A stretch of DNA of 64,000 bases from Patescibacteria group bacterium (GTDB lineage Bacteria > Patescibacteriota > Minisyncoccia > Phycocordibacterales > Phycocordibacteraceae), in the NCBI GenBank assembly GCA_038064495.1, contig JBBTSZ010000002.1, positions 16,717 to 80,716 of the forward strand. The letters are read 5' to 3'. The number at the start of each line of letters is the position of its first letter. The first letter of the stretch is position 1. This document shows positions 535 to 64,000 of this stretch, piece by piece. A program made the translations under genes and the position numbers. The notes beneath the pieces were generated by a model. The model was not told the DNA's origin. It saw only the letters and a program-made list of their open reading frames with translations, and made no database searches.

Positions 535-535
535 A

Positions 536-1513: not shown

Positions 1514-1550
1514 GGCTACAGTATACCGTGAGAGACCCCTCGGGGTTTAG

Positions 1551-2096
1551 TTAACTGGGTATTGGTTGTTGCTCACTACGAGCACGTCGTGCTTGTCGCG
1601 CCTCAAGGTCCTTTTGTTGTTTCTCAACTCGGGCCTGTCGTATTTGATCTCGAGCACCTGCCCCAGCAGCACGAAGATTTGCAGCACGTAGTGCAATTTT
1701 TGCTTCAGGAGCCATTGCCCCGAGTGTTTTTCCGGCAAGGTGAGAGCCCGTACCTTTTGCGTTTTTCGCTGAATCTTCGTAACGAGTAATCATAATGAGT
1801 ACAATAGTTCCAAGTGTCAGCTCGGGGAGCATATCAAGGAACGGAATGAAGGTAATAACCGAAGTCGCCAGAATGGTTCCAAATTTAAGGAGTACATTTT
1901 TATTGAAATACTGAATACCCAGGAGCCGAAACCAAACCAAAAGACCAATCTCAACGGTTGCTCCGAGCATCATTGCGACAATGGCCCCGAAACCAGTTAA
2001 GTCAGCGAAGAACTGAATGATATCGGTAATACCAGCAAGGCTGACGAGAAGGATTGCACTGAGGCCCGATATTCGTTGCCTCGTTTGCTCACTCAT
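1551..2096 (-). CDS. small polytopic membrane protein with charged Ala/Arg-rich C-terminal tail
   Basis: ORF 181 aa, 3-4 hydrophobic helices; starts 4 nt after VirB4 stop (coupled). Confidence 0.5.
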   Translation of the reverse strand: MSEQTRQRISGLSAILLVSLAGITDIIQFFADLTGFGAIVAMMLGATVEIGLLVWFRLLGIQYFNKNVLLKFGTILATSVITFIPFLDMLPELTLGTIVLIMITRYEDSAKNAKGTGSHLAGKTLGAMAPEAKIALRAANLRAAGAGARDQIRQARVEKQQKDLEARQARRARSEQQPIPS

Positions 2097-2099
2097 AGG

Positions 2100-3929: not shown

Positions 3930-3937
3930 ATAAAGAA

Positions 3938-4585
3938 TTAACGACTCGGGGCACCCCCCTCTCCAAAACGGATAGGACTTTCCATTTGGCCAATATTAAA
4001 CGAGCGATACATAAGTTCAATGGTCTCTTCCGTGTTGAGTGGCACGGCACGTATGCCCGCAGACGCGAGTCCTGCGGCAACAAGGGACATGCGCTGCTCT
4101 AACTGCACGCGATCTTCTTGGAACGAGTCACGCTCCCCTCCCCCGGTCCCTTTTTTCATACCCGGAAGAGAGAATGACTGAACCACCTTTGAGGTTCCTG
4201 ACGGGGTGTACGGAACAACGATATAAAACATCTTTGACATAATATCGGTTGAGTCGGTGAAGCCTCGCACAAACTGCATATATTCGCGCACCTGAATACG
4301 CATCAACTCACTCTGTTGTTTCTCCAAGCGCTCACTAAGGAGTGCGAGGTAGGGACGAATATCCATTTTCCGTGAGTGCACCACAATTTCAACGGTAAAA
4401 TCAAGTGTATTCAAAAACGATTGGAATCCACCAATGATTGCTTGCTGCTCGTCTTGAGATTTGAGCGAAAAGTTCAAGGATGAGCACATCATAATGCTCC
4501 GGTACCCATCATCTTTTAAAATAACGATACCGTTACGTACTTCCTTAACGGGTACAAAATCTTGAGTTGCTTGAGGTACAGCCAT
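3938..4585 (-). CDS. VirB4 N-terminal domain-like protein (215 aa); probably the N-terminal part of the same VirB4, separated by a frameshift in a G6 run
   Basis: N-terminus VPVKEVRNGIVILKDDGYRSIMM resembles VirB4/TrbE N-terminal domain; only 8 nt to next start with no RBS; adding one G to the GGGGGG run (minus strand, ~3954-3959) fuses frames to ~830 aa. Confidence 0.5.
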   Translation of the reverse strand: MAVPQATQDFVPVKEVRNGIVILKDDGYRSIMMCSSLNFSLKSQDEQQAIIGGFQSFLNTLDFTVEIVVHSRKMDIRPYLALLSERLEKQQSELMRIQVREYMQFVRGFTDSTDIMSKMFYIVVPYTPSGTSKVVQSFSLPGMKKGTGGGERDSFQEDRVQLEQRMSLVAAGLASAGIRAVPLNTEETIELMYRSFNIGQMESPIRFGEGGAPSR

Positions 4586-4588
4586 ACG

Positions 4589-5002
4589 TTATTTGGGAGC
4601 ATCCTGCTGATCTTTAATATCCAGTGACCAGGCCAATTCACGAAGCTTGTTCTGTGAAAGGCCGAGCTTCTGTCTTGTTTCAACAGGTGGAGCAACAGGA
4701 GCAACCTCCTCTACCTTCGGACTCGCGTCCTTCTTCCAAAGATAGAGCTTTCCCTTTGAATAGTAGGCAACGCCTGCCTCAATGATTTCTATAAAGCTTT
4801 TATTATTTATCTTATAGAACGCGAGTGCGGCAGAAAGAGCCGCAACGGGGATTGAAAGCGCTATACCAAGAAAGAGCGGTAGGTATAGAACGAAAATGGT
4901 GCACAAACCAGCACCCCCAGCGAGGTAGATGAATTGTTTGAGGGTAAACGGACCAAAAATCTTGTCCTCGACTTCAATAAATTGAGGTACCTGATACTCC
5001 AT
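4589..5002 (-). CDS. PrgI/VirB3-like small membrane protein
   Basis: 137 aa, N-terminus MEYQVPQFIEVEDKIFGPFT followed by two hydrophobic helices, positioned immediately upstream of VirB4 as in Gram-positive-type T4SS. Confidence 0.5.
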   Translation of the reverse strand: MEYQVPQFIEVEDKIFGPFTLKQFIYLAGGAGLCTIFVLYLPLFLGIALSIPVAALSAALAFYKINNKSFIEIIEAGVAYYSKGKLYLWKKDASPKVEEVAPVAPPVETRQKLGLSQNKLRELAWSLDIKDQQDAPK

Positions 5003-5050
5003 TACTCCCTAGTATATCAGGAGTTATAAGGTGCTTTGTATAAAACTACT

Positions 5051-5557
5051 CTAGTGATGGCCTCCTCCGTGCGACTTATCTTCTTTTTGACCCCCATGAC
5101 TACTACCTCCACCACCCATTTCCTTTGCTCTACCCCATGCTTGCCAAAAAAAGTGCCATAAAACACCAAAGACTCCACGACCAACACCAATCATTCGACT
5201 AAAAATACCACTATGCTCTCCGTGACTTTCATGAGATGAATGATTACTGACTTCCTCCCCACCTCTCTTACTTGTACTGCTTTCAACTACGTGATTTGGT
5301 TGTTCAGCTGATTCTGGAGTATCTGAGTCAGTAGCTTCTTCACCTCCAGCCGGACCCTCCTCTACTACTGTATATTCCCCATCGACTATTTGGTCACGAG
5401 CATCGAGGTTTCCTCGAATTTCATCGAGCCGCTCCTTTGGAGCCTCAGTATTTGCAGGTACGGGCGGCTGATACGGCACTACATCACGAGACTCACCTTC
5501 CTCAGGGTTCTGTGGTGGCTCCTCGTGGCTACCATTTCCTGGTGGGTTTTCAGACAT
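5051..5557 (-). CDS. acidic Gly/His/Glu-rich low-complexity protein with hydrophobic C-terminal segment
   Basis: ORF 168 aa, compositionally biased; within operon. Confidence 0.35.
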   Translation of the reverse strand: MSENPPGNGSHEEPPQNPEEGESRDVVPYQPPVPANTEAPKERLDEIRGNLDARDQIVDGEYTVVEEGPAGGEEATDSDTPESAEQPNHVVESSTSKRGGEEVSNHSSHESHGEHSGIFSRMIGVGRGVFGVLWHFFWQAWGRAKEMGGGGSSHGGQKEDKSHGGGHH

Positions 5558-5594
5558 GGTTCTAGCCTAGCAAGTAGTCTGCCTGATTGCACAC

Positions 5595-6686
5595 CTAGTG
5601 GAGGGGCTCACGGTACGGGTCTGCACCATAGCTTTCCACAGGATTACTAGGAGAAGCTGCTGAAACTTGCTGCGCAGGAAGAGGTGGAGCGGTAACCGCT
5701 GAGTGTGCAGCAGGTGCTTGAGGACCACCAAACCACGAAGAAGTGCTTTGTTCATGTGGATGAAGCTTTTCTTCCTCCATATCATGAGCCATCGTCCGCA
5801 TTCTTGGCTGTGAAGATTGTGGATTTGGAACGTAGGTATCCGCAGGTGGATTCGGCCTTAGGACAGCTACTTCAGGAGGGACGGGTGCTTGTAGCGGAGG
5901 GGTGACGACCGGCGGTGGTACTGACTGAGCTTGTACCGAAGGCCGAGCAGGAGGTGCCGGAACTACAGGAGGGATAGGTGCTGGAGTCACGGCCGGGGAG
6001 GAGTTCTTCAACATGGAAGGTATTTCAAGGTCATGCATTGGGACGCTAAATCTCTCCGCAAGTGACTTTGCGGAAGAAGCCGTTCCAGTAGGGGTCGAGT
6101 TAGGTGTAATTAAATTAATAGAACGTGGAGGAGTTGTCTCAGCGGGAGCTGAAGGAGCGACAGGAGCAGGGCTCGGTGGAACTATTGCCGGCGCGGGAGG
6201 AGGCGCTGCTGAAATGGCTGGAGGATATGGTGGAGTGCCGGTCGGTAAATTTTGCGGAACTTGCGGCCTCAGTGGAGGCGGAGTAACAGCTATAGGAGTA
6301 ACTACAGGCATTTTCTGAGTAATAGTTACAGGAGGTATCTCAACTGCAGGTGCCCCACTCACTGCTCCAGCCTCTTTCACTTTCTTATTAAGTGGCACGA
6401 ACACCTTCTCATTCAAATCCTTTACGAGATGTTCTGCTACGTCAGCGGGAAGTCCAAGTTCAAGTAGCCCACCATAAAACTCTGTAGGACTTACTAAACC
6501 AAGTAAAGTATTTCGAATTAGTCCCGTTACATTACCAACTATATCTACATGTAGTTGGTAGTTCTTCTGAAGATTAATAACAAAATCAAGCACAGTTTCA
6601 CCACTTAATTCTCCTTGCACAGCCAGCGGAGCCTTGCTGTAGGCTTCTAAAACTTCTTGCTCAGTGAATTGTTTCATATCAAACAC
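5595..6686 (-). CDS. proline-rich protein (N-terminal globular domain + ~250 aa P/A/V-rich region)
   Basis: ORF 363 aa; stop/start abutting neighbours. Confidence 0.5.
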   Translation of the reverse strand: MFDMKQFTEQEVLEAYSKAPLAVQGELSGETVLDFVINLQKNYQLHVDIVGNVTGLIRNTLLGLVSPTEFYGGLLELGLPADVAEHLVKDLNEKVFVPLNKKVKEAGAVSGAPAVEIPPVTITQKMPVVTPIAVTPPPLRPQVPQNLPTGTPPYPPAISAAPPPAPAIVPPSPAPVAPSAPAETTPPRSINLITPNSTPTGTASSAKSLAERFSVPMHDLEIPSMLKNSSPAVTPAPIPPVVPAPPARPSVQAQSVPPPVVTPPLQAPVPPEVAVLRPNPPADTYVPNPQSSQPRMRTMAHDMEEEKLHPHEQSTSSWFGGPQAPAAHSAVTAPPLPAQQVSAASPSNPVESYGADPYREPLH

Positions 6687-9374
6687 CTAAATAATTCCAC
6701 CCCAGCGCCTCCCTGCATCTGGATTCAAAGCTACCCCGCTGGTCATTCCAGTAAGAGCATCAAACCTAACAACTTCAGGTGAAGGTGCACCCGGTGCGGT
6801 GATGAGATTACGTATGTTGGTGATCGCAGTTCCGCTTAATTTATTTGGATCAAGAGCTGCAAGCTGTTCGCCTCGCATAGACCGAATAACATGATTCTGC
6901 TCAATAACAGAAGTAGGAAGCTTACTCACGCTCTCGTTTGTCAAAATGTTCAGTGTGTTCGGTGCATTCGCAACCGAGAAAAGATGGTTCCGGACATCGT
7001 TCATCGTGTTTGCACTCAATTTTCCAAAATCAATATTGTTAATTCGACCCGATGCAGTTAGAGCGTTCAGAGTATCTGTCTTCTTTAAGTTGTATTCAGG
7101 TATTTTCTTGAGAGCATCATCCGACATCGCATCAATGGTTACCCGAGCTCGTACCGGGTCATTGAAACGGTCATCACGAGCCTGTTGGAAGCCGTCTCGA
7201 ACGGACTGAGCGATATTTTTATTACTACCCACTTTATCGGCTTGGTCTTCCCGAACTACTGAGACAAAGTCGTAATCGCTTAATAACGAAGCACTTGCCT
7301 TCGATTGTGCAATTTGCTCAAAGCCTCGTTCACCCAATTTCTTAATCGCTGCATTAGCAGCATCACGAGCAGCAGTCCGTATCGGTGGAGCTTTCGTTGC
7401 ATCATTTGCTATGGCGAGACTCTCGCGAATCCCAACGTGGCGATTATCAAGCAGTCTTGCCTTCAGGTCCTCTGGCGTATCCTTGTACTTTAGAAGACTG
7501 CCAATTTTCTCATCAGAGAAAGCTTCAGCAACAGCTCTCCCTCCTTCTTGTACGGCATGTGATTTAAGTAGTTGTTCTTCTGAAAGCCCGTTAAGGAAAG
7601 TGGTTGTCTCTGCACTAAGAGCTCCTGCACGCGCTTCATCCTCAAGTTTTTGGAACGCCACTTCGTCGTCATACTTTTTCTTTAGCCCCTTGCCATACGT
7701 CCCGCTCTTAGCATCTGCAAAGACATGTCTAGTATCACTAAAGGTCGCGCCCTTGGATGGAATTGCTCCCGCCTTTATATCAGCGAGACCGAGTGCAGTC
7801 TGTGCAAGAGGGAGCCGTCGCGCATCAAGATTAGCACTTTGAAGCGGGCGCAGGATACGATTTACGGCAACTTGCCCGACCTTACCCCCGAACCCAGTTT
7901 TTTGCTGGAAACGTTGGAGTCCATACGCGTATCCTCCTACAGCCAGATTTGTTCCACGCGTCATGGTTCCAAACACAAGCGCACTCGCCGAGTTAACTGC
8001 AAAGTTTGAACCAAGCACACCCATACGACGTGAGGCGATGAGAGACATCATCATGAATCCGATAACAATGAAGAACAACACAAACGCTTGAAGATTTTGC
8101 GAAGCTCCAGCTACTGCCCCACCTGCGACAGCCTGCCCCAGATCACCCGTGGTACCAAGTCCAGAGCCAATCTTGATACTAATAAGAATGAGTAGCAGGT
8201 ATACCGGAGCAAAAAATGATTCGTTAAGAAGAAGACTCCACCAACGTTCAGCAAGTTTATGAAGTAAAGGCACTGCCATACCCGCAAAACCTATAGGAGA
8301 CGTCACAATTAAGAACACGAGAACAACCGCACGGCTGATAAGCATAATAGTCCCTGCGAGCAAGACAATCGCCACAATAGTGATGAGCAAAGAGTAAATC
8401 AACAAAAGAGTGATTTTCTCAAGAGGAGAACTACCTGTGGTAGAAGGGTCCGATCTAAAACCAAGAAACGTAGAACCACCGGTTAATTGCATAATCTGCC
8501 CCGAAATACCTTCATTAGCGCACGTCGTTGAGTCAGCACCAGTACAATTTGTACCAGCCTGTTCCGCAAGGACTGATGAGAAACCGTTAGCCACGTCAAT
8601 CACTGCTTCTGCAGCAAACAAACTAAAGTTAAGCAGTATCGCAAAGATAATAAGAGCAGGCAGCGCTCGCTTTGCCGTGAACTCCGACCGTTCAAGATTT
8701 AAAATAGTACTGACGCCCATGAAGATGAATCCGAATAAGAGAACTATATTGCCAACGTCTCGGAGTACTCCCCATGCAATCAAAAGACCTTCCGAGTTAC
8801 CAAAGTACTGAGCAAACTCAAATACCGTTTTGATAATGGTCCAGTTAAAAACGACACCGACAATCGTAAGAATCCATCCCGCAAGCGTAAACACTGCATA
8901 GCTAAGTGGGTAGAGTGTGACAGCAAGAAAACTATCTGCCAACCATCCAAACACGTCCGGGAATACTGAACTTGTTTCACTCGTACAACTTCCGTTCGCT
9001 GCACAGTTCGTGGTCGTACTCGCGAAATAGTTATTTTGAGAACCGGTTGAACCTAACAGTTTTCCAGAGGCATCTTTTGCAGTACACCCCTCATCCGAGA
9101 CGGCTGCTTCAGCACCACCACCAGCGGTACAGGTTGCGGTGCTACCAGCAGGATTTGTACAAGTATAGACCGTACTACCGAAACTGATCTCTGAAGTACA
9201 CGTCCAACCAGTACCGTACTTACCGGGGTTATTTGTGAGTGCCTCGGGCACGGTAGCTGCAAGGGTAATAGGGGCAACGCCAAATAAAACAAACAAGAAA
9301 GCAGTCCCCAGAAGAGCTCTACCCATCTTTTTTTGTATTAGGAAAGTGTTCACGGCAAGTGAAGCTATATACAA
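6687..9374 (-). CDS. VirB6/TrbL-like polytopic membrane protein with signal peptide and long soluble C-terminal extension
   Basis: 895 aa; N-terminal signal, Cys/Thr-rich ectodomain, then >=6 hydrophobic helices, then ~400 aa charged/alpha-helical tail; topology typical of VirB6-family channel proteins (inference). Confidence 0.5.
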   Translation of the reverse strand: MYIASLAVNTFLIQKKMGRALLGTAFLFVLFGVAPITLAATVPEALTNNPGKYGTGWTCTSEISFGSTVYTCTNPAGSTATCTAGGGAEAAVSDEGCTAKDASGKLLGSTGSQNNYFASTTTNCAANGSCTSETSSVFPDVFGWLADSFLAVTLYPLSYAVFTLAGWILTIVGVVFNWTIIKTVFEFAQYFGNSEGLLIAWGVLRDVGNIVLLFGFIFMGVSTILNLERSEFTAKRALPALIIFAILLNFSLFAAEAVIDVANGFSSVLAEQAGTNCTGADSTTCANEGISGQIMQLTGGSTFLGFRSDPSTTGSSPLEKITLLLIYSLLITIVAIVLLAGTIMLISRAVVLVFLIVTSPIGFAGMAVPLLHKLAERWWSLLLNESFFAPVYLLLILISIKIGSGLGTTGDLGQAVAGGAVAGASQNLQAFVLFFIVIGFMMMSLIASRRMGVLGSNFAVNSASALVFGTMTRGTNLAVGGYAYGLQRFQQKTGFGGKVGQVAVNRILRPLQSANLDARRLPLAQTALGLADIKAGAIPSKGATFSDTRHVFADAKSGTYGKGLKKKYDDEVAFQKLEDEARAGALSAETTTFLNGLSEEQLLKSHAVQEGGRAVAEAFSDEKIGSLLKYKDTPEDLKARLLDNRHVGIRESLAIANDATKAPPIRTAARDAANAAIKKLGERGFEQIAQSKASASLLSDYDFVSVVREDQADKVGSNKNIAQSVRDGFQQARDDRFNDPVRARVTIDAMSDDALKKIPEYNLKKTDTLNALTASGRINNIDFGKLSANTMNDVRNHLFSVANAPNTLNILTNESVSKLPTSVIEQNHVIRSMRGEQLAALDPNKLSGTAITNIRNLITAPGAPSPEVVRFDALTGMTSGVALNPDAGRRWGGII

Positions 9375-53465: not shown

Positions 53466-54107
53466 ATGCAACCCGATACCGCTCTCCAGATTCTCTATTT
53501 CGTTGTGCTCATTATTTCCATCATCATTCATGAGGTGGCTCATGGATATGCCGCAAACTCGCTTGGAGACCCAACGGCCAAACTCCTTGGACGGTTAACA
53601 TTGAATCCGCTTCCGCATATTGATCCTATTGGCTCCATCATTGTGCCCTTGCTGTGTGTTATTTCTCCCGGGCACTTCTTTTTTGGCTGGGCAAAGCCGG
53701 TTCCGTACAACCCTCACAATTTACGTAATAAGCGGTGGGGTGAGGCAATTGTTGGTATTGCTGGCGTTGCCACGAACCTCATTATTGCGGTAGCGTTCGG
53801 ACTCCTTGCGCGCTATGCGTACGCTTCAGGCATGGACACCTTTGGACAGGCAGCAAGCGTGATTGCACTCGTGAATCTATTCCTCGGCATGTTTAACTTG
53901 ATTCCGATTCCACCCCTGGACGGGTTTACCGTACTGCGCGGCATATTGCCGTATCGCTATGCAATCGCCTTCCGTTCGTTTGAAGAGAAACTCCAGCAAG
54001 GAGGCCTCCTCATGCTCATTGGCTTTTTGTTCCTGTTCAGCTACGTCTTTGCCGGACCCTTCTCGCTGTTTGTTGAGTACCTCTTCCGGATTCTTATTGG
54101 TGTGTAA
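53466..54107 (+). CDS. site-2 protease (M50) family membrane metalloprotease
   Basis: HEVAHG (HExxH) within TM helix, second motif region NLFLGMFNLIPIPPLDG. Confidence 0.75.
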   Translation: MQPDTALQILYFVVLIISIIIHEVAHGYAANSLGDPTAKLLGRLTLNPLPHIDPIGSIIVPLLCVISPGHFFFGWAKPVPYNPHNLRNKRWGEAIVGIAGVATNLIIAVAFGLLARYAYASGMDTFGQAASVIALVNLFLGMFNLIPIPPLDGFTVLRGILPYRYAIAFRSFEEKLQQGGLLMLIGFLFLFSYVFAGPFSLFVEYLFRILIGV

Positions 54108-54114
54108 TGAAAAT

Positions 54115-54759
54115 ATGAAAGTAACAAAGTATGGGCACGCCTGTGTATTGATTGAGCAGGGTACTGTTCGAATACTTATTGACCCAGGAATGTGGAGCTC
54201 AGTCCCTGCCCTTACAGAACTCGACGTAGTTCTGATTACGCACGAACATTTTGATCATATTGATATCGAGACCATTGAAACTCTTGTCGAACAAAACCCA
54301 AATGTAGTCATCTTTACCAATGACCAGGTAGGGAAAATCCTGAAAGAAAAGAAGCTCTCGTATACTCGATTACAAGACGGCGACACTACTGAGGTACAAG
54401 GTATCGTAGTACAGGGCATTGGTACCAAACACGATATTGTGTATGGTCCCTCATCTCCTTGTGAAAATACTGGCTACCTCATTAACAACGAATTCTTTTT
54501 TCCAGGCGACGCACTCTCAGTTGTTCCAACCACACAAGTCCGCGTTCTAGCACTACCGACAGGGGGGCCTTGGATGAAGTTCTCTGAAGCAATCGACTAT
54601 GCGAAGAAACTCAAACCAGCCCTTGTCTTTCCCGTCCACGATGCCCTTTACACGGAAGAAGTGCGACGAGGACTCGTCCCAAGAGTTATCGGTACGCATT
54701 TGGAGTCAGCAGGGATTGTTTTCAAAGACTTGAAAGATACTGAGACAATAGAGGTATGA
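54115..54759 (+). CDS. MBL-fold metallo-hydrolase
   Basis: HxHxDH motif ITHEHFDHID; start at MKVTKYGHAC. Confidence 0.7.
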   Translation: MKVTKYGHACVLIEQGTVRILIDPGMWSSVPALTELDVVLITHEHFDHIDIETIETLVEQNPNVVIFTNDQVGKILKEKKLSYTRLQDGDTTEVQGIVVQGIGTKHDIVYGPSSPCENTGYLINNEFFFPGDALSVVPTTQVRVLALPTGGPWMKFSEAIDYAKKLKPALVFPVHDALYTEEVRRGLVPRVIGTHLESAGIVFKDLKDTETIEV

Positions 54760-55322
54760 GAGAAGTGGAAGTAAAGGCGCATCTACGAAACAAAGAAGAG
54801 CTTCTAGGAAAGCTCACGGAGTCTGGGGCTGTGTTTGCAAAGTCCGTCACCCAGAACGATACGGTCTTTGTTCGAGACGCCTCCACAATGGAGAAGTTTC
54901 TCGGTAATGATTGCTTTCTTCGTATACGAGAAACACCAGAAAGCATTATCTTCACACTGAAATACCACCCGAACCGGACAGGAAATGGCAACGCGCTTGC
55001 CATGCCGCTTGAGCATGAACTAACCGTAAGTAACAAGAAAGAACTTGAGGAAATGCTTCGTCTCATGGGCTTTGTGCCGGCACTTGTCATCAACAAGACA
55101 CGAGAGAGTTGTCACGTGGGAGATTTTGAAATCTGTGTTGATGAAGTGGAAGACCTAGGCTCATTTATTGAGGTGGAGCGACTCACTGAACATGAAGAAG
55201 AGGTTGAGCCTGTTATTAAGGACATGAAAGAATTTCTATGCTCACTCGGAGTTGCAGAAAGCGACATGGGTGTAAAACGGTACGATATTCAACTTCTTGA
55301 GAAACAATTCGGTACGAACTAA
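54756..55322 (+). CDS. CYTH-domain protein (class IV adenylyl cyclase / triphosphatase fold)
   Basis: N-terminal EVEVKAHL...EFLRIRE pattern; 4-nt overlap with upstream gene. Confidence 0.65.
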   Translation: MREVEVKAHLRNKEELLGKLTESGAVFAKSVTQNDTVFVRDASTMEKFLGNDCFLRIRETPESIIFTLKYHPNRTGNGNALAMPLEHELTVSNKKELEEMLRLMGFVPALVINKTRESCHVGDFEICVDEVEDLGSFIEVERLTEHEEEVEPVIKDMKEFLCSLGVAESDMGVKRYDIQLLEKQFGTN

Positions 55323-55390
55323 GTGCAGTTTTTAGAAAGAGGAGTACTATTGCCGACGGACCAGATTTCAAAAAAGGGGGAGAGAATAGG

Positions 55391-55738
55391 ATGCAGTACC
55401 TCAGTAAGTTGCTCGTGCTCGTTGTTGCACTTGAGCCCTATGCACTCGCTCGTGGAGAGCCGGCAATATATCCGACCATGTCTGAAACGTCTGAATTGAA
55501 GACATTCCGCTTGAAGCCACGCGCTCCTCGTTCCGAGATGCCCGATACACGCGAGGCAGACGTCTCCGTTCCAACACCACGATTGAGTCGGGACCTGAAG
55601 AGTAAGGGTACAAAAGTGGTGGTTCTCTGGTACGACGAGTCAGAATGGGCTGACCCAGAGCACCCCTCCACGCTTTCAGCTGGAAGTGGCAAAGGCGGAC
55701 TCCGCTTACGTCTCACGATTCCGCTTGAAGATAAATAG
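55391..55738 (+). CDS. small secreted hypothetical protein
   Basis: Signal peptide [20 protein letters not shown]. Confidence 0.5.
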
Positions 55739-55752
55739 GCCAAAAAGCCAAG

Positions 55753-55782
55753 AAGGCCCGGAGCATGCTCCGGGCCTTTCAT
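55753..55782 (+). terminator. intrinsic terminator
   Basis: AAGGCCCGGAGCATGCTCCGGGCCTTTCAT. Confidence 0.55.
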
Positions 55783-55856
55783 GTAGGCCCTGGTTGCTTT
55801 TCTTAAGGCATTCCTCTATAGTGAGCCAATCCCGCGGTGCGGGTTTTCATTTACGA

Positions 55857-56267
55857 ATGGCAACAATTCAACAGCTTACAAAAAAGGCACGCAGCAATAA
55901 AACTCGAAAGAGTAAGGTTGTGGCTCTTGGTCGTGGCTTCAATGCGCTTAAAAACCGTCCGGAATACTATCCGGCTCCCTTTAAGCGCGGTGTGTGTGTC
56001 AAAGTAACCACGAAAACCCCCCGCAAACCAAACTCCGCTATTCGTAAGATTGCTCGTGTACGCCTCACGAACGGTATGGAAGTAACGGCCTACATTCCCG
56101 GAGAGGGACACAACCTCCAGGAGCACTCCGTGGTTCTTCTTCGCGGTGGTCGCGTGAAGGATATTGGTGTGCAATACACCGTAGTGCGCGGAAAGCTTGA
56201 TACTGCTGGTATTGATAAGCGCCGTCGCGGTCGCTCTAAGTACGGTGCGAAAAAGCCTAAAGCGTAG
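55857..56267 (+). CDS. rpsL: 30S ribosomal protein S12
   Basis: ...[19 protein letters not shown]...GGRVKD...; start at [10 protein letters not shown]. Confidence 0.9.
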
Positions 56268-56275
56268 TTTTTGAT

Positions 56276-56746
56276 ATGCGACATCCCGTAAAAAATAAAT
56301 ATCCTCGCCGCCCTGACTCTAAATACCAGTCAGATGCTATTTCTCGTTTCATCAACACGGTTATGTGGGATGGAAAGAAAGACACGGCAACCAAGGTGGT
56401 TTACGACGCACTCGAACTTTTGAAAAAAGGTGAGACTGAGCAGGACCCAATTGAACTCTTTGAGACCGCTATTCGTAACGTATCTCCACTTATGGAAGTG
56501 CGTTCTCGTCGTGTGGGTGGAGCTAACTATCAGGTGCCTCGTGAAGTCCCACAACAGCGCCGTACCTCGCTCGCGTACCGTTGGCTCATCAACGCAGCTC
56601 GCGCAAAGAAGGGGAAGCCTATGGCTGAGAAGCTTGCTGAGGAGATTCTCCTTGCAGTAAAGAACGAAGGTTCTGCTATCAAAAAGAAGGACGACATGCA
56701 CCGCATGGCTGATGCCAATAAGGCATTTGCGCACTTCGCCTGGTAA
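56276..56746 (+). CDS. rpsG: 30S ribosomal protein S7
   Basis: Global S7 similarity. Confidence 0.9.
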   Translation: MRHPVKNKYPRRPDSKYQSDAISRFINTVMWDGKKDTATKVVYDALELLKKGETEQDPIELFETAIRNVSPLMEVRSRRVGGANYQVPREVPQQRRTSLAYRWLINAARAKKGKPMAEKLAEEILLAVKNEGSAIKKKDDMHRMADANKAFAHFAW

Positions 56747-56768
56747 TCAAAGCTCGCCCTTACAAGGT

Positions 56769-56800
56769 AAAAGGCGCCACAGGGCGCCTTTTACATTTTC
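56769..56800 (+). terminator. intrinsic terminator after rpsG
   Basis: AAAAGGCGCCACAGGGCGCCTTTTACATTTTC. Confidence 0.65.
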
Positions 56801-56868
56801 TGAATTATGTGTTAATATAATTACGGAAGAGCATCCTGCTCGAACGAATCATTGAAAGGGAGAATAGA

Positions 56869-57732
56869 ATGTTACCTAGAAATCGTCGCCTAGCACTGGC
56901 TGAACCAAAGGTTAAGCCAACCGTGCTCCATTGCGGAGTTAGTGCAACAACTCTGTACGACATGAATGATGAACCAGACTCTGAGCTCCTTCTTGGAGAG
57001 GAGTTCCATGTTGTGAGTATCGAAGGTGACAAATGTTGGGGATTTGCTCCGACAACACTCATGCCGGGATATGTGATGGTTGCATCTTTGACCGACACTC
57101 ACGTGGTGCATTCGCACCGCATCATCACGCCGTCAGCCATTGTTCGAGAACAACCACTGGCGAGAAGCAAGGAACTCGATTTGCTCGGTATGAATTCGCT
57201 CATCACGGTCATTAACCACAAGGGAGACTTCCGCCAGATGATAGGTGGCGGTTGGGTTCGGGTGGCAGATACCCGTGAAGTCATGCGTGGCAAATACGAC
57301 TGGGTTGCTCTTGCTGAGCAGCTTGTTGGGCTGGCCTATAAATGGGCCGGCCGGAATACGTCGCGCGCGAAAGAGGGTGGCATCGACTGTTCTGGACTCG
57401 TGAACATTGTTCGGCTTGCTGCGCATCGGGACCCGGTACCGCACAATGCTGGCCGTATGTTCACCGAACTCCTCGAGAAGAAACAAGCACAACTTGTTCT
57501 ACCTGAAGGAGAAGCCTACATGCCGAGCATTCATGTCATCCAACGCGGTGACTTGGTGTTCTGGAAAGGGCATGTGGGAATCATGACGTCCGAATACGAC
57601 ATGATTCATGCGACCGTTGACTTCGGCAAGGTGGTGGCTGAACCGCTCAGGGAAGTCATCGGCCGTCGTCGTGAAAAGGGCAAGGGCGATGTCACCGGCA
57701 TTCTCCGCTTCAAACGAAACAATGTTCTCTAA
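56869..57732 (+). CDS. NlpC/P60 (C40) family cysteine peptidase with N-terminal SH3-like region
   Basis: Catalytic Cys motif GIDCSGLV, downstream His (GHVGIM). Confidence 0.8.
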   Translation: MLPRNRRLALAEPKVKPTVLHCGVSATTLYDMNDEPDSELLLGEEFHVVSIEGDKCWGFAPTTLMPGYVMVASLTDTHVVHSHRIITPSAIVREQPLARSKELDLLGMNSLITVINHKGDFRQMIGGGWVRVADTREVMRGKYDWVALAEQLVGLAYKWAGRNTSRAKEGGIDCSGLVNIVRLAAHRDPVPHNAGRMFTELLEKKQAQLVLPEGEAYMPSIHVIQRGDLVFWKGHVGIMTSEYDMIHATVDFGKVVAEPLREVIGRRREKGKGDVTGILRFKRNNVL

Positions 57733-57735
57733 CCT

Positions 57736-57774
57736 CGGGGCGCAGACAGAATGTCTGCGCCCTTTGCTTTTTCC
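57736..57774 (+). terminator. intrinsic terminator
   Basis: GGGGCGCAGACAGAATGTCTGCGCCCTTTGCTTTTT. Confidence 0.7.
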
Positions 57775-57863
57775 TGACTTTTTCCGTATCTTGTACCTAA
57801 CGCCTCGGCGGGCTTTTTAATTTACCAACGCCTCAAACAAGCATTTCGCTTACCAGTATCCTT

Positions 57864-60011
<2,148 letters not shown>

Positions 60012-60035
60012 AGATCCTCTCTACTCTAGTGAACA

Positions 60036-60060
60036 AAAGCGCCTAACGGCGCTTTTGTTG
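60036..60060 (+). terminator. intrinsic terminator after fusA
   Basis: AAAAGCGCCTAACGGCGCTTTTGTTG. Confidence 0.7.
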
Positions 60061-60134
60061 TAGGTGTAGAAGTCACCTGCTTGACGATAGCGAAAGAGAC
60101 TTGATAATAAGCGCATAGCTATAAGAAATCTCGC

Positions 60135-60404
60135 ATGTTTGAAACCCCTTTTAAGAAAAGTGTCCCTACAGAAGAGGCCCCAGCACCTTGGGAACCATCG
60201 AACACGGAACTCGCGGTGATGTGCCAGCTTACTGGTACGGACGTACACGCAACTCTCCCTGAGATTCGACAGGCTCTCCGGAAGTCTATTGAAATGGACA
60301 AGCAACACTGGGAGAATGCTGAGGGTAAGAGCGCTTTCGACGGACTCGCACGTACCTTTCCAGACAATGCCACCGTAATTGAATGGGCTAGCAGGGAAGA
60401 CTAA
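60135..60404 (+). CDS. small hypothetical protein (89 aa) inserted between fusA and tuf
   Basis: ORF flanked by terminators on both sides; no obvious SD. Confidence 0.4.
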   Translation: MFETPFKKSVPTEEAPAPWEPSNTELAVMCQLTGTDVHATLPEIRQALRKSIEMDKQHWENAEGKSAFDGLARTFPDNATVIEWASRED

Positions 60405-60423
60405 GAGATTCCTGACCGACGTT

Positions 60424-60451
60424 AAAAATAGCTACCGAAGGTAGCTATTTT
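60424..60451 (+). terminator. intrinsic terminator
   Basis: AAAATAGCTACCGAAGGTAGCTATTTTGCTTG. Confidence 0.7.
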
Positions 60452-60662
60452 GCTTGACCTTTCATTCTACGCCGTGTAACTTTACTTCTAACGCGAGTAC
60501 GGCGCTCTTTTCAATGTTTTTCGGCCATAGGGACGAACAACTGCTGGAAAGGCGCTGCGCGGGGAACGCTTAGCGCCTTGGTCGTCTAGCCTCAGCTTCA
60601 CAGCTGGAGCCGGACAGGCGCGGCAAAAGTTATTACTTTTAGCTACCAGTAATTTTACGCTT

Positions 60663-61862
60663 ATGGCAGATGCATTTGATCGCAGCAAGCCGCACATGAA
60701 CGTAGGAACCATCGGTCACGTGGACCATGGTAAGACCACGCTCACGGCTTCTATCCTCAATGTGCTCAATCTTAACTCCGCAGCAGGCTACAAGGCCCGC
60801 GCTGAGAAGGTTGAGAACATCGACAACGCTCCAGAAGAGAAAGCTCGTGGAATCACGATCGCTCTTCACCACTCTGAGTACGAGACACCGAATCGTCACT
60901 ACGCTCACATTGACGCTCCGGGTCACGCTGACTACATCAAGAACATGATTACGGGTGCTGCCCAGATGGATGGTGCAGTACTTGTAGTCGCCGCGACCGA
61001 CGGCGCAATGCCCCAGACGCGCGAGCACATCCTTCTTGCAAAGCAGGTGGGTGTACCTCGTCTCATTGTTTTCCTTAACAAAGTGGACATGGTTGATGAT
61101 AAGGACATGGTGGATCTCGTTGAAGAGGAAATCCGCGACCTTCTCGCCAAGCAGGGCTTCGATAAGGACACTCCTGTCGTGAAGGGTTCTGGTCTCAAGG
61201 CGCTTGAGGCTACTGACGCTTCTGACGAATGGGCTCTTAAGGTAAAGGAACTCGTCGACACGATGGATTCTTACTTCCCAGACCCAGTTCGTGAGACGGA
61301 CAAGCCGTTCCTTATGCCAATCGAGGACATCTTCTCAATTGAAGGACGCGGAACCGTCGTTACCGGCCGTATCGAACGAGGTATGGTCAAGGTAGGTGAA
61401 GAAGTTGAAATTGTCGGCCTTCAGCCAACAACCAAGACGACCATCACCGGTATTGAAATGTTCAACAAGCAGCTTCAGGAAGGACAGGCTGGCGACAACG
61501 CAGGTATCCTTCTTCGTGGAACGAAGAAGGAGGACGTGCATCGCGGTCAGGTGCTTGCGAAGACCGGTACGGTTACTCCGCACACTGACTTTGAAGCAGA
61601 GGTCTACATCCTTTCTAAGGATGAGGGTGGTCGTCACACACCATTCTTCTCTGGCTACAAGCCACAATTCTACATCCGAACAACGGACGTTACTGGAGAG
61701 GTAACGCTCGCTGAAGGAAAGGAAATGGTTATGCCAGGAGACACGGTTACCTTCAAGGTAAAGCTCACGGCACCTATCGCACTTGAGGACAATACCCGCT
61801 TCGCTATTCGCGAAGGAGGTAAGACCGTTGGTGCTGGTGTGGTGACGAAGATCACTGCGTAA
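60663..61862 (+). CDS. tuf: elongation factor Tu
   Basis: [19 protein letters not shown] motifs. Confidence 0.95.
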
Positions 61863-61885
61863 AATAGCCTGCTACTATTACTCGT

Positions 61886-62248
61886 ATGGCTACCACCGCG
61901 AAGAAAACAACGAAGAAAGCAGCAGCCGCTGAGGCTGCGGCTGAGCCCAAGCTTCGCATCCGTGTCCGAGCCTATGAGCATAAAATCCTCGATCTTTCGG
62001 TGAAGCAGATTATGGATACTGCGAATCGCTTTGATGCGAAAATCGTAGGACCCGTACCGCTTCCAACTGAGATAAAGCGATGGACCGTGAATCGCTCAAC
62101 GTTCGTCCACAAAGACGCGCGCGAGCAGTTTGAGATGCGCATTCACAAGCGACTCATTGATATTCTTTCTCCAAACCCAAAGGTTATTGAGGCTCTTACG
62201 AATCTCAATCTACCGTCGGGCGTCACGATTGATGTGAAGATGGTGTAA
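61886..62248 (+). CDS. rpsJ: 30S ribosomal protein S10 (with Ala/Lys-rich N-terminal extension)
   Basis: LRIRVRAYEHKILD... core. Confidence 0.9.
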   Translation: MATTAKKTTKKAAAAEAAAEPKLRIRVRAYEHKILDLSVKQIMDTANRFDAKIVGPVPLPTEIKRWTVNRSTFVHKDAREQFEMRIHKRLIDILSPNPKVIEALTNLNLPSGVTIDVKMV

Positions 62249-62395
62249 GGAAGTGCTTCCAAAAGTTCTCCACTGACTTTGTTATCGTTCGGAAAATATC
62301 TTTCACCGTACCAGCACGTACGACTCAAGATATTTTCCTCCGACGCCTCGTCATTGAAGTTTTTTGAAAACACTTAGTAAAGAAGAAACAAAAGC

Positions 62396-62427
62396 AAAAC
62401 CGCCCGAAAGGGCGGTTTTGCTTTTGA
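62396..62427 (+). terminator. intrinsic terminator after rpsJ
   Basis: AAAACCGCCCGAAAGGGCGGTTTTGCTTTTG. Confidence 0.7.
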
Positions 62428-62488
62428 CTTTTGTAATACCTTGTTGTATAAAGCCGTTGTGCAGCCAGGTCTGCAGAAAGGGTTTGAG

Positions 62489-62938
62489 ATGTCTAATTTT
62501 TTGAAGTGGAGCACCAGCTTCACCATTCTGTACCTTATCGCTGTCGTGTTCGGATACCTCACCGGAGATCTCCTTCGTGGCATCGTTTTAGCTGTTCTCA
62601 CAATCATCGGGTTAGCACTCACTGGTGCACTTGCGTGGCCGGAATTACACATCGGCTTCGCAAGCTGTTGCGGGGTGCTCGTCGCCAGATCGGCAACAGC
62701 TGCATTGAATCCTGTGCTGTCGCCGACTTCTCTCGAGATCGGTATTGGGGTCGCGTGCGCAATTGTGGGAAGCGTTTGTGGTTTTGTGGCGCTCTACCTT
62801 GCCTCGTTCAATCCTGTGAAGGCTGAAGACGAGAAGGGCTGGGACTGCTTTGCCGCGTCCTTGCCGTTCGGTGTCGGCACCATCCTCGGCGGGGCAATCC
62901 TTCTCTATCGGCGCTGGTACAAGCCGGCTACGGTCTGA
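62489..62938 (+). CDS. hypothetical polytopic membrane protein (4 TM) inserted between rpsJ and rplC
   Basis: ORF (track start 62441; Met at 62489 precedes first TM). Confidence 0.5.
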   Translation: MSNFLKWSTSFTILYLIAVVFGYLTGDLLRGIVLAVLTIIGLALTGALAWPELHIGFASCCGVLVARSATAALNPVLSPTSLEIGIGVACAIVGSVCGFVALYLASFNPVKAEDEKGWDCFAASLPFGVGTILGGAILLYRRWYKPATV

Positions 62939-62955
62939 TCCAAGCAATCGAACTC

Positions 62956-62995
62956 AAACGGGCGCGGAGAAATCCGCGCCCGTTTTATTTTCCTC
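62956..62995 (+). terminator. intrinsic terminator
   Basis: AAACGGGCGCGGAGAAATCCGCGCCCGTTTTATTTT. Confidence 0.7.
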
Positions 62996-63023
62996 CGTCT
63001 AAAAGGCCGGCTTTACGTTATAT

Positions 63024-63051
63024 AAAAGGCGGGACTTGCGTCCCGCCTTCG
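63024..63051 (-). terminator. intrinsic terminator for the minus-strand small gene
   Basis: On minus strand AAGGCGGGACGCAAGTCCCGCCTTTTATAT. Confidence 0.6.
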
Positions 63052-63073
63052 TCTTTGCGACGACCGCGTGTCG

Positions 63074-63265
63074 TCAGAGTGTTTCGGTGCTGAGCCAGCA
63101 TTCGGAGCGAATGTCTGCCCAACCCTCGGATTGAATGTCACCACCCCATCCTTCGCGGATTCCGCCATGACCTTCGCTGATGCCGGCGCTTCCTCCATCT
63201 CCGATGAAAACACTACCACCGTCGGATCTTGTGGGACGCTTGGTCCCACCCCATCCTTCGCGCAT
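63074..63265 (-). CDS. Gly/Trp-rich repeat-containing small protein (63 aa; REGWGG x2, SEGHGG, SEGWAD)
   Basis: Strong SD GAAAGGAG 7 nt upstream of ATG (63263-63265, minus); own terminator; nucleotide-level repeats CCACCCCATCCTTCGCG. Confidence 0.5.
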   Translation of the reverse strand: MREGWGGTKRPTRSDGGSVFIGDGGSAGISEGHGGIREGWGGDIQSEGWADIRSECWLSTETL

Positions 63266-63416
63266 GATTTTCTCCTTTCTGACCGCACAATCGGGTCTGT
63301 TCGAAGCATAGCACCAGAATTTGCATTTGGGAGGCACCACCTGTATAGTCCCTAAGTCGCTATGTACGAGCTTTTGGCTCGGACCAATGGCCGGGAGAGC
63401 TCTCTGGAGCTCCTAA

Positions 63417-63450
63417 CCGCGCTGTTGTACAGCGCGATTTCTATTTTTAC
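63417..63450 (+). promoter_or_regulatory. hairpin + U-tract ending 3 nt before rplC start codon (attenuator/leader structure)
   Basis: CCGCGCTGTTGTACAGCGCGATTTCTATTTTTAC then TGC ATG. Confidence 0.4.
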
Positions 63451-63453
63451 TGC

Positions 63454-64000
63454 ATGAAATTTATCCTCGCCCGAAAAGGTCGCATGACTCAAGTCTTCGA
63501 AGAAGATGGTCGTGTTAATGCTGGAACCGTTCTTACGGTAGGCCAGAACATTGTCACGCAGGTGAAGAGTGCGACCACGGATGGCTACGGAGCGGTTCAG
63601 ATTGGCTACGAGGTTCAGAAACTCGCGCGCGTGAACAAGCCTCAGGCAACGAAGGCATTTAAAGTACTCAAGGAATTCCGTACGGATACCCCAGAAGCGT
63701 TTACTGTCGGCAGTGAACTCACGATTGATACCTTCGCTGAAGGCGAGACCATTCAGGTTGCCGGTACCTCAAAGGGTAAGGGCTTCCAGGGTGTCGTGAA
63801 GCGTCATGGTTTCAAGGGAGGTCGACGTTCTCACGGCCAGAAGCACTCAGAGCGTGAGGCTGGTTCTATCGGCGGTGGTCCTGGACGTGCTGGTGGTCGC
63901 GTGACCCTCGGCATGAAGATGGCTGGGCGTATGGGTGGCGACCGTGTTACGGTAACGAATCTCAGGGTGCTCCGCGTTGACCCGGCAAACAGCCAGATAA
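63454..64000 (+). CDS. rplC: 50S ribosomal protein L3 (3'-truncated by window edge)
   Basis: MKFILARKGRMTQVFEEDGRV...VAGTSKGKGFQGVVKRH... Confidence 0.9.
   Translation, partial: MKFILARKGRMTQVFEEDGRVNAGTVLTVGQNIVTQVKSATTDGYGAVQIGYEVQKLARVNKPQATKAFKVLKEFRTDTPEAFTVGSELTIDTFAEGETIQVAGTSKGKGFQGVVKRHGFKGGRRSHGQKHSEREAGSIGGGPGRAGGRVTLGMKMAGRMGGDRVTVTNLRVLRVDPANSQI

Follow-up and report, generated by a model that had tools for sequence, protein, structure and literature searches.

Putatively insulated modules and species-specific genes in the str-S10 ribosomal gene cluster of a groundwater Paceibacteria bacterium

The str-S10-spc cluster is a textbook example of gene-order conservation, and metagenome-assembled genomes of the Candidate Phyla Radiation (CPR) are handled with ribosomal-protein marker sets and contig-linkage assumptions that rest on it. 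How, then, do unrelated genes come to stand inside it? The question is raised by a 64,000-nucleotide (nt) stretch of a Patescibacteria genome (GenBank assembly GCA_038064495.1, contig JBBTSZ010000002.1, positions 16,717 to 80,716), which we will refer to as the window. Over its positions 55740-64000 the genes follow one another as rpsL-rpsG, an NlpC/P60 peptidase gene, fusA, an open reading frame (ORF) of 89 amino acids (aa; orf89), tuf-rpsJ, a membrane-protein ORF, a minus-strand Gly/Trp-rich ORF and rplC. A sequence-only reading of this DNA had proposed precisely that order, which the ORF listing and Pfam bear out, and had taken it for a universally conserved operon broken by terminator-insulated insertions. 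The answer that we favour, and consider probable, is somewhat different: the str-S10 cluster of this lineage would be a chain of insulated modules, and self-contained cassettes would accumulate and turn over at the terminator/promoter joints, the modules themselves staying collinear.

By an exact-protein look-up, the window was traced to a 321-kb contig obtained from groundwater of the Hainich well H41. The relatives of its EF-G belong to the Patescibacteria class Paceibacteria, near genomes labelled Kaiserbacteria or Parcubacteria; the Paceibacteria are members of the CPR, and the organism in question is an ultra-small groundwater bacterium. Its EF-G is 71-93% identical to the EF-G of 80 species, and the comparison set consisted of 80 Paceibacteria species-level loci with 10-kb flanks (designated by L numbers), in which conserved genes were placed by tblastn and every junction was measured. 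Junction lengths are sharply bimodal, variation being confined to four junctions, and eleven others are essentially always tight. The variable junctions, written here with a slash, are rpsG/fusA, with a median gap of 536 base pairs (bp; range 8-7388, above 300 bp in 41 of 66 species), fusA/tuf (median 1300 bp, range 125-8456, above 300 bp in 49 of 58), rpsJ/rplC (median 207 bp, range 12-5995, above 300 bp in 20 of 45) and rplB/rpsS (median 900 bp, range 97-3383, above 300 bp in 20 of 27). No species has a gap of more than 300 bp at rpsL-rpsG, rplC-rplD, rplD-rplW, rplW-rplB, rplV-rpsC, rpsC-rplP, rplP-rpsQ (which spans rpmC), rpsQ-rplN or rplN-rplX; such gaps occur at tuf-rpsJ in 2/52 species and at rpsS-rplV in 1/26. 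The pair rpsL-rpsG is tight in all 66 species that have both genes, with a median of 22 nt and a maximum of 226. The window's own gaps match this pattern, with 8 bp between rpsL and rpsG and 23 bp between tuf and rpsJ, and with 1117, 651 and 1205 bp at rpsG/fusA, fusA/tuf and rpsJ/rplC, respectively. Beyond the window, the public gene calls of the source contig continue its last module as rplC-rplD-rplW-rplB.

Terminators are distributed in the same manner. They lie at most 110 nt past the stop codon of rpsG in 41% of the species, of fusA in 61%, of rpsJ in 56% and of rplB in 79%, compared with 0-10% for nine other genes tested (3% for rpsL). Close relatives also keep a terminator where the junction is short and empty, namely at rpsG/fusA in L004, L010, L018, L020, L022 and L023, at fusA/tuf in L002 and L010, and at rpsJ/rplC in L012, L016, L019, L022 and L024; furthermore, a hairpin homologous to the window's rpsJ terminator stands 3' of rpsJ in L004 and L021. 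Close-relative alignments of 100-250 nt upstream of rpsL, fusA, tuf and rplC contain near-invariant -35/-10-like hexamers (TTGCaT, 17 nt, TAtagT or variants). These alignments include species with and without inserts, and the conserved promoter and leader adjoin the four genes whatever gene precedes them; in each aligned case the U-tract of the preceding terminator enters the -35. Since terminators and promoters are also present in insert-free close relatives, the split is a general feature of the lineage that preceded the window's insertions. In this sense, the proposal of an operon broken by insertions stands for the inserts, which are not conserved in the lineage, but not for the break-up: the predicted division into separately terminated and promoted units is lineage-typical and was not produced by the insertions.

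Within the window, scanning and folding agree with the claim of the sequence-only reading that a strong hairpin and U-tract mark every junction: the junction hairpins have folding free energies (dG) of -14 to -33 kcal/mol and stems of 8-17 bp, followed by U-tracts. Two of the hairpins that it had taken for terminators (55831-55843 and 63418-63436) are parts of the conserved rpsL and rplC 5' leaders and not insert terminators. A consensus scan of 55.0-64.0 kb yielded 22 terminator-like sites, where shuffled sequences gave 8.9 +/- 3.0; according to a second scanner, the site density is 2.5/kb between 55.7 and 64 kb and 0.92/kb over the remaining 55.7 kb of the window. Strong terminators are thus common in this genome, yet clearly concentrated at this cluster. 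At four joints the terminator overlaps or abuts the following -35 (56767-56794 and 56790; 57737-57763 and 57764; 60428-60452 and 60454; 62389-62426 and 62424). The predicted transcription units number eight, compared with the "at least five" counted earlier, both figures being drawn from sequence, and transcription in vivo would be expected to end at the hairpins and to begin at the hexamers.

One of the insertions can be delimited exactly. Blastn and pairwise alignment show that window positions 60058-60452 are precisely missing in the sister species, L002, where a fusA terminator homologous to 60032-60059 is joined directly to the tuf -35. TTTTG is found on both sides of this orf89 cassette (60053-60057 and 60448-60452), and the cassette's own terminator rebuilds the ...TTTTGCTTGAC joint. 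The sister species differs from the window at all three junctions and shares none of its inserts, and tblastn returned no homologue of orf89, the membrane ORF or the Gly/Trp ORF in the 80 species loci. With the NlpC/P60 gene recurring in L009 only, the inserts are not conserved members of the cluster among these relatives, which supports the insertion reading.

The cargo of the variable junctions is hugely diverse among the relatives. Their junctions hold 256 genes, of which 190 (74%) are co-oriented with the cluster, and clustering these genes together with the window's inserts distributed 257 proteins over 209 clusters, including 179 singletons. Among the Pfam families are surface or secreted ones (Laminin_G_3, PKD, PG_binding_1, DUF3298, subtilase and the pilin-like N_methyl), toxin-antitoxin pairs (PemK; HepT/MNT), NUDIX, assorted enzymes, translation genes (S2/EF-Ts, L10/L12) and purine synthesis genes. 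A two-gene pair sits at rpsG/fusA in L033 and at fusA/tuf in L055, and a PaaX_M protein at rpsJ/rplC in L011 and L013 and at rpsG/fusA in L051; the presence of the same families at different junctions argues for true relocation or insertion over differential loss alone.

According to the reading that we favour, the modules would be rpsL-rpsG, fusA, tuf-rpsJ, rplC-rplD-rplW-rplB and rpsS onwards, each of them with its own TTGCaT-17-TAtagT-type promoter and 5' leader and, at its end, an intrinsic terminator with a U-tract that touches or overlaps the following -35. The joints would be the sole sites of the cluster able to accept DNA without polar effects on essential genes, and over evolutionary time they would gain and swap promoter-gene-terminator cassettes. 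The window would contain four cassettes at three joints: the NlpC/P60 gene, orf89, the membrane ORF and, less surely, the Gly/Trp peptide. The last terminator of each insert would restore the terminator/-35 joint, and the ribosomal modules would therefore stay insulated and collinear. As to the route of insertion, recombination between the strongly conserved genes on either side, illegitimate or anchored by homology, would be favoured; neither a recombinase nor long repeats were found with the inserts, just the TTTTG microhomology at the orf89 cassette. The coordinates of genes, terminators and promoters are collected in Table 1.

Table 1. Genes, terminators and promoters of the str-S10 region, in window coordinates (promoters and terminators are predictions; dG in kcal/mol).
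Feature	Position	Strand	Remarks
orf115	55391-55738	+	extra ORF between CYTH gene and rpsL
Terminator after orf115	55753-55778	bidirectional	11-bp GC-rich stem and T-tract; dG -26.7 in context
rpsL promoter	TTGCTT 55794-55799, 17-nt spacer, TATAGT 55817-55822	+	hexamers near-invariant in 11 species
rpsL	55857-56267	+	Pfam S12; module 1
rpsG	56276-56746	+	Pfam S7; module 1, 8 nt after rpsL
rpsG terminator	56767-56794	+	dG -21.3; overlaps predicted NlpC -35
NlpC promoter	TTTACA-17-TAATAT, 56790-56818	+	predicted; -35 within rpsG terminator
NlpC/P60 gene (287 aa)	56869-57732	+	PF00877; insert 1
NlpC terminator	57737-57763	+	dG -23.0; U-tract enters fusA -35
fusA promoter	TTGCTT 57764-57769, 17-nt spacer, TATCTT 57787-57792	+	conserved in 11 species
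fusA (EF-G)	57864-60011	+	Pfam; module 2
fusA terminator	60032-60059	+	12-bp stem, dG -26.3 in context; homologous to L002 fusA terminator
orf89 cassette	60058-60452 (395 bp)	+	promoter, orf89 and terminator
orf89 promoter	TTGACG-16-GATAAT, 60081-60108	+	predicted
orf89	60135-60404	+	no Pfam match; insert 2
orf89 terminator	60428-60448	+	hairpin and U-tract
tuf promoter	TTGACC 60454-60459, 17-nt spacer, TAACTT 60477-60482	+	conserved in close relatives
tuf	60663-61862	+	Pfam; module 3
rpsJ	61886-62248	+	Pfam; module 3, 23 nt after tuf
rpsJ terminator	62389-62426	bidirectional	17-bp perfect stem, dG -32.9
Membrane-ORF promoter	TTGACT 62424-62429, 17, TATAAA 62447-62452	+	predicted, read from sequence; near-consensus; -35 overlaps 3' end of rpsJ terminator
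Membrane ORF (149 aa)	62489-62938	+	insert 3
Membrane-ORF terminator	62956-62985	+	13-bp stem, dG -26.2 in context
Gly/Trp-ORF terminator	63028-63047	-	dG -25.9; about 27 nt past stop
Gly/Trp ORF (63 aa)	63074-63265	-	insert 4, tentative
rplC promoter	TTGCAT 63321-63326, 17-nt spacer, TATAGT 63344-63349	+	from alignments of relatives
Hairpin and U-tract within rplC leader (P3)	63418-63436	+	terminator-like
rplC	63454 onward, past window end at 64000	+	from translation; module 4 start

Among the alternatives, the one that survives best holds that the three orphans (orf89, the membrane ORF and the Gly/Trp ORF) are no functional genes at all but filler, non-coding or in decay, that has gathered at permissive junctions, the NlpC/P60 gene being the only real cargo; we consider this somewhat unlikely. 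It has in its favour that the orphans match only themselves and have no Pfam domain: orf89 found nothing beyond itself among 1.84 billion representative proteins, the sole match of the membrane ORF among 5.8 billion proteins is itself (100% identity), and a 5.8-billion-cluster protein collection holds no homologue of the Gly/Trp ORF. Likewise, 179 of the 257 junction genes lack a counterpart at the junctions of other species. Against it speak the codon-usage scores, which are positive for all inserted ORFs of the window and amount to 15.5 for orf89, 12.9 for the membrane ORF and 8.9 for the Gly/Trp ORF, spurious ORFs averaging -10.9 +/- 10.2, with 1.7% of them reaching 10 and 6.9% reaching 4. 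Besides, each of the three comes with a promoter-like site and a strong terminator of its own, Shine-Dalgarno-like sites being present in two of them. On the reading that we favour, they would be expressed.

The three orphans are not equally convincing. An AlphaFold2 model of orf89, made from the single sequence, shows a compact arrangement of four helices with a predicted local distance difference test (pLDDT) score of 72.5, which disfavours filler; a fold search of the Protein Data Bank (PDB) with this model returned nothing below E = 4.5, which counts on the other side. The membrane ORF is polytopic, and its model shows five helices at low confidence, a point in favour of filler; the public protein has 149 aa, and the 165-aa form described in the sequence-only reading starts at TTG. 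The Gly/Trp ORF is the weakest element of the whole observation, and its identification is tentative. It possesses a GGAG ribosome-binding site and an internal 20-nt repeat, its codon score is reached by about 5% of spurious ORFs, and it is one of several overlapping ORFs on both strands across 63013-63355. At this place the public assembly has a different, 98-aa minus-strand frame (63013-63309), which again speaks for filler; it continues across the minus-strand terminator, and its codon score is -0.3. This frame was probably called in error, in place of the 63-aa Gly/Trp frame or on non-coding DNA.

Base composition also changes in this part of the window: over 62400-63400 the G+C content is 0.55-0.58 with a negative AT skew, compared with about 0.50 in the flanking ribosomal genes. 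The raised G+C of the region with the membrane and Gly/Trp ORFs is compatible with a foreign or recent origin. Between the rpsJ stop codon and its terminator lies a long imperfect hairpin of 125 nt (62251-62375, plus strand; fold z-score -8.2 including the terminator), which is missing in the relatives L004 and L021, whose terminator follows rpsJ by about 15-20 nt. It was considered as a repeated element resembling miniature inverted-repeat transposable elements and rejected as such, no other copy being present in the window or the 80 loci.

The fourth variable junction, rplB/rpsS, is situated inside the S10 operon. In the window's genome it lies past the window end (L081:12143-12270) and holds a 275-aa gene without Pfam match; seven related species (L002, L006, L012, L015, L021, L022 and L030) have a DUF3298 protein there, encoded on the minus strand. 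In four relatives, parts of the fusA 3' end (about aa 670-715) are duplicated downstream of the intact gene (L011:12752-12817, L013:12630-12743, L045:15261-15371 and L068:3437-3568); they look like scars of insertion into, or of recombination anchored in, the fusA 3' end. Long fusA match spans in relatives were examined as possible inteins or introns and discarded, being an artefact of the EF-Tu GTPase domain cross-matching EF-G. Another side observation concerns a near-identical terminator and -35 joint of about 31 nt (AAACCGCCCGAAAGGGCGGTTTTGCTTTGAC; 28 nt 100% identical by blastn), found at rpsJ/rplC in the window (62396-62428) and at rpsG/fusA in its closest EF-G relative (L001:1885-1918). 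In each genome the shared joint precedes a small membrane ORF, and the membrane ORFs of L001 are unrelated to that of the window.

Could the inserts be mobile elements, such as insertion sequences, integrative elements or homing cassettes, that target these sites? Several observations invite the idea: the recurrence of the same families at different junctions in different species, the duplicated fusA 3' fragments in L011, L013, L045 and L068, the 28 identical nt shared by different junctions of the window and L001, TTTTG on both sides of the orf89 cassette, and the toxin-antitoxin pairs in the relatives' cargo. We nevertheless judge it improbable. In the window's inserts Pfam detected neither integrase nor transposase nor homing-endonuclease domains, and the 25 most frequent families in each of two cargo sets from relatives include no integrase or transposase and no recombinase or homing domain. 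Terminal inverted or long direct repeats were not found around any insert, flanking repeats of at least 14 nt being limited to 14-16-mers at the level of chance and to the repeat within the Gly/Trp ORF. Furthermore, the cargo is extremely heterogeneous and includes housekeeping genes (S2/EF-Ts, L10/L12, purine synthesis).

The NlpC/P60 gene is the insert whose product can be assigned to a family, and it bears on another alternative. PF00877 matches it with 37.9 bits (cut-off 23), the catalytic Cys174, His235 and His247 are conserved, a signal peptide is absent, the N-terminal region is SH3b-like, and the codon score is 43.4. The nearest homologues, no more than about 35% identical, are alphaproteobacterial C40 peptidases with an SH3_16 domain (PF18348). 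This domain occurs in all close homologues; in the window protein it reaches 18.1 bits, below the cut-off of 25.8. A PDB search with the single sequence gave no match; the family profile, on the other hand, matches the dipeptidyl-peptidase VI of Bacteroides (3npf, 3pvq) and the YkfC of Bacillus cereus (3h41) with E-values of 1e-28 to 1e-23, aligning from the N-terminal region onward over most of the length. The protein resembles these gamma-D-glutamyl-L-diamino-acid endopeptidases in its NlpC/P60 domain behind a putative SH3b region, its Cys-His-His triad and its profile match, and differs from them in its distance from the nearest sequences and in the SH3_16 match below the Pfam cut-off. Judged by its family, it would most likely be a murein-peptide endopeptidase of the YkfC/dipeptidyl-peptidase VI type that acts on free peptides, and not a wall-lytic secreted autolysin.

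Its placement between rpsG and fusA had been described as particularly odd, which it appears less so once it is seen as one of many unrelated cargo genes at these junctions. A homologue occurs in one of the 80 species, L009, at the same junction. This coincidence would fit the view of a str/S10 operon that has been extended in this lineage, the extra genes being conserved and transcribed together with the rest, as would the 74% co-orientation of the relatives' junction genes and the existence of families common to the same junction in related species, such as DUF3298 at rplB/rpsS. The two NlpC proteins, however, are just 30-32% identical, compared with 88% for EF-G, and in the EF-G neighbour-joining tree L009 is not the window's sister; the actual sister has none of the inserts. 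Together with the absence of the three orphans from the 80 loci and from the large protein libraries, and with the terminators and promoter-like site that bracket and equip each insert, this makes an extended operon highly improbable. The probability of an assembly or binning chimera, a suspicion that attaches to a sequence from a metagenome assembly, is close to nil: the locus lies on a 321-kb contig, the junctions join homologous terminators and promoters seamlessly, the same modular pattern exists in 80 independent genomes, and independent assemblies of other samples from this well yielded small contigs (L082, L083) with the fusA-orf89-tuf arrangement, which makes chimerism very unlikely.

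Several points weigh against the chain of insulated modules and have to be set beside the evidence for it. In more distant Paceibacteria many rpsG/fusA and rpsJ/rplC gaps are below 80 bp and have no terminator, which is the classical contiguous state; therefore, the modular state holds for a sub-clade and not for the whole class. The boundary between the M50 protease gene and rpsL is likewise variable across the 80 species, and "hotspot" may mean merely "operon boundary". The gap sizes were taken from the ends of tblastn hits and are approximate, as are the genes in the gaps, which were called by a home-made per-locus codon log-odds score (longest-ORF calling had been dropped because it chose antisense ORFs, for example one of 95 aa opposite orf89). 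Promoters and terminators are consensus-level predictions in a phylum without characterised promoters. The direction of change, gain as opposed to loss, is deduced from how often the short form occurs and from a neighbour-joining tree of one gene (EF-G). Lastly, three of the four inserts in the window are orphans.

The 5' leaders of the modules deserve separate consideration. The rplC leader (63350-63453) is composed of the helices P1 (63367-63381) and P2 (63397-63412) and the terminator-like P3, and then a U-tract. A covariance model built from seven sequences (R1) and run over the window and the 80 loci recovered 14 instances, in the window and in 13 relatives (L001, L002, L006, L009-L012, L014-L016, L019, L021 and L025), all of them directly 5' of rplC, and the leader stays beside rplC across inserts of 162 to 5995 bp after rpsJ. 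Both sides have changed in 15 of the 21 pairs, which thus covary, and 94% of the cells are paired compared with 33-53% in slid controls; none of 500 shuffles reaches the observed values, all of these figures leaning toward structure since the sequences were aligned to the model itself. According to RNAalifold, conserved segments farther upstream may pair alternatively with either half of P3, in an antiterminator-like manner and with some compensatory changes, which is reminiscent of an attenuator. No Rfam 15 family reached its gathering score over the region, the hits with E up to 5 being terminator look-alikes such as NrrF and ohsC. On these comparative grounds, the rplC leader is a candidate for a new ribosomal-protein attenuator that accompanies the rpsJ/rplC split.

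The other modules have leaders of their own. The rpsL leader contains a hairpin (55831-55843) that covaries in 11 species, and a U-rich tract; the fusA leader (within 57764-57863) has a weak GC hairpin and a U-tract, and upstream of fusA the segments TTGC..TTTT and TATCTT..TAACG are invariant in 11 species. The tuf leader, of about 175 nt (within 60454-60662), is conserved between the window and L001-L004, L006 and L009, several of its pairs being compensatory; no Rfam family matches it, and no tRNA genes precede tuf in the region. Its conservation is roughly at the level of coding sequence, and a long-range helix pairs ACGCG..GGCGCUCUUUU with AAAGGCGCUGCGCG. Further features were seen around the start codons and promoters. 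The genes rpsL, fusA, tuf and rplC start after U-rich leaders without a Shine-Dalgarno sequence (55817-55856, 57787-57863, 60640-60662 and 63437-63453), and the NlpC gene, the Gly/Trp ORF and orf115 have strong GGAG-type ones (56850-56868, 63266-63283 and 55368-55390). ACCAGTA stands just before the ATG of the window's fusA and of tuf in all relatives. CTAACGC or TAAGTCGC is found a few nt past the -10 of the fusA, tuf and rplC promoters (57793-57806, 60483-60500 and 63350-63362), and this type of motif may be a common initial-transcribed or regulatory element of translation genes.

Upstream of rpsL, the window carries genes for an M50 protease, a hydrolase of the metallo-beta-lactamase fold, a CYTH protein and orf115 (53466-55738); in L007 (840-2121) an M50 gene and a CYTH gene are followed by rpsL, the CYTH gene preceding it directly at a distance of 78 nt. 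The ORF orf115 has a signal-peptide-like N-terminus, a codon score of 17.8 and no Pfam match, and it is called in the public assembly.

How far does this arrangement depart from known systems? The order and orientation of the conserved genes and the tight rpsL-rpsG pair are those of the str/S10 clusters of the Escherichia coli type. In contrast to these, terminators and promoters are predicted here after rpsG, fusA, rpsJ and, in relatives, rplB; on sequence-level evidence the str operon is not one contiguous unit, its gaps of 1117 and 651 bp holding unrelated genes; and rpsJ is joined to tuf and separated by 1205 bp from rplC, the leader standing before rplC and not before rpsJ. In the str clusters of cyanobacteria and plastids rps10 follows tufA. 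The linkage of rpsJ to tuf is common to them and to the window, with the difference that here rplC and the other S10 genes still come next in collinear order, beyond a variable spacer and with their own leader. The S10 leader of E. coli is an L4-mediated attenuator, reportedly of narrow distribution. Like it, the rplC leader is a structured element that ends in a terminator-like hairpin and U-tract before the L3-L4-L23-L2 block, with alternative pairings possible; unlike it, it lies before rplC instead of rpsJ, and it has no similarity to any Rfam family.

The nearest precedent is found in the Gammaproteobacteria, where collinear translation operons are joined by terminator-promoter overlaps ("operon concatenation"), functional coupling across these overlaps has been demonstrated, and in some lineages multigene insertions part neighbouring translation operons that are still collinear (Brandis, Cao and Hughes, 2019; PMC6735719). 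The four joints of the window, at which a U-tract overlaps or abuts the next -35, are of this kind, and a comparable coupling may operate across them; in the present case, it is the canonical str and S10 operons themselves that are broken up, and almost every species has cargo of its own (compare PMC6735719). No description of the pattern in Patescibacteria was found in open-access text, and the pattern is a lineage-wide variant of the known insertions between core operons. A further parallel is offered by horizontal-transfer hotspots. As Oliveira et al. reportedly found in 2017, these are flanked by core genes, variable genes being concentrated in few intervals, many of them without recognisable mobility genes. 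The likeness consists in a few fixed core-gene intervals that hold variable, species-specific genes. The differences are that the intervals considered here belong to the gene cluster that is most conserved among bacteria, and that the comparison runs between species or genera and not inside one species.

A bolder proposal would make the joints of this sub-clade preferred landing pads, perhaps birthplaces, of new genes, with a rate of orphans above that of the rest of the genome and accompanied by a newly evolved rplC attenuator and the approximately 175-nt tuf leader. The ultra-conserved, highly transcribed flanks would then provide both recombination anchors and transcriptional exposure; as it stands, we regard this as an unlikely speculation. 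The work reveals no new molecular system. For annotation, the junctions are of note as places with orphan ORFs and mis-called frames. The most useful by-products are the candidate leaders of rplC and tuf, in a phylum whose regulation is essentially uncharted. More broadly, a sub-clade that splits str-S10 at four fixed points, with fillings specific to each species, bears on the evolution of operons and on insulated gene gain beside essential genes.

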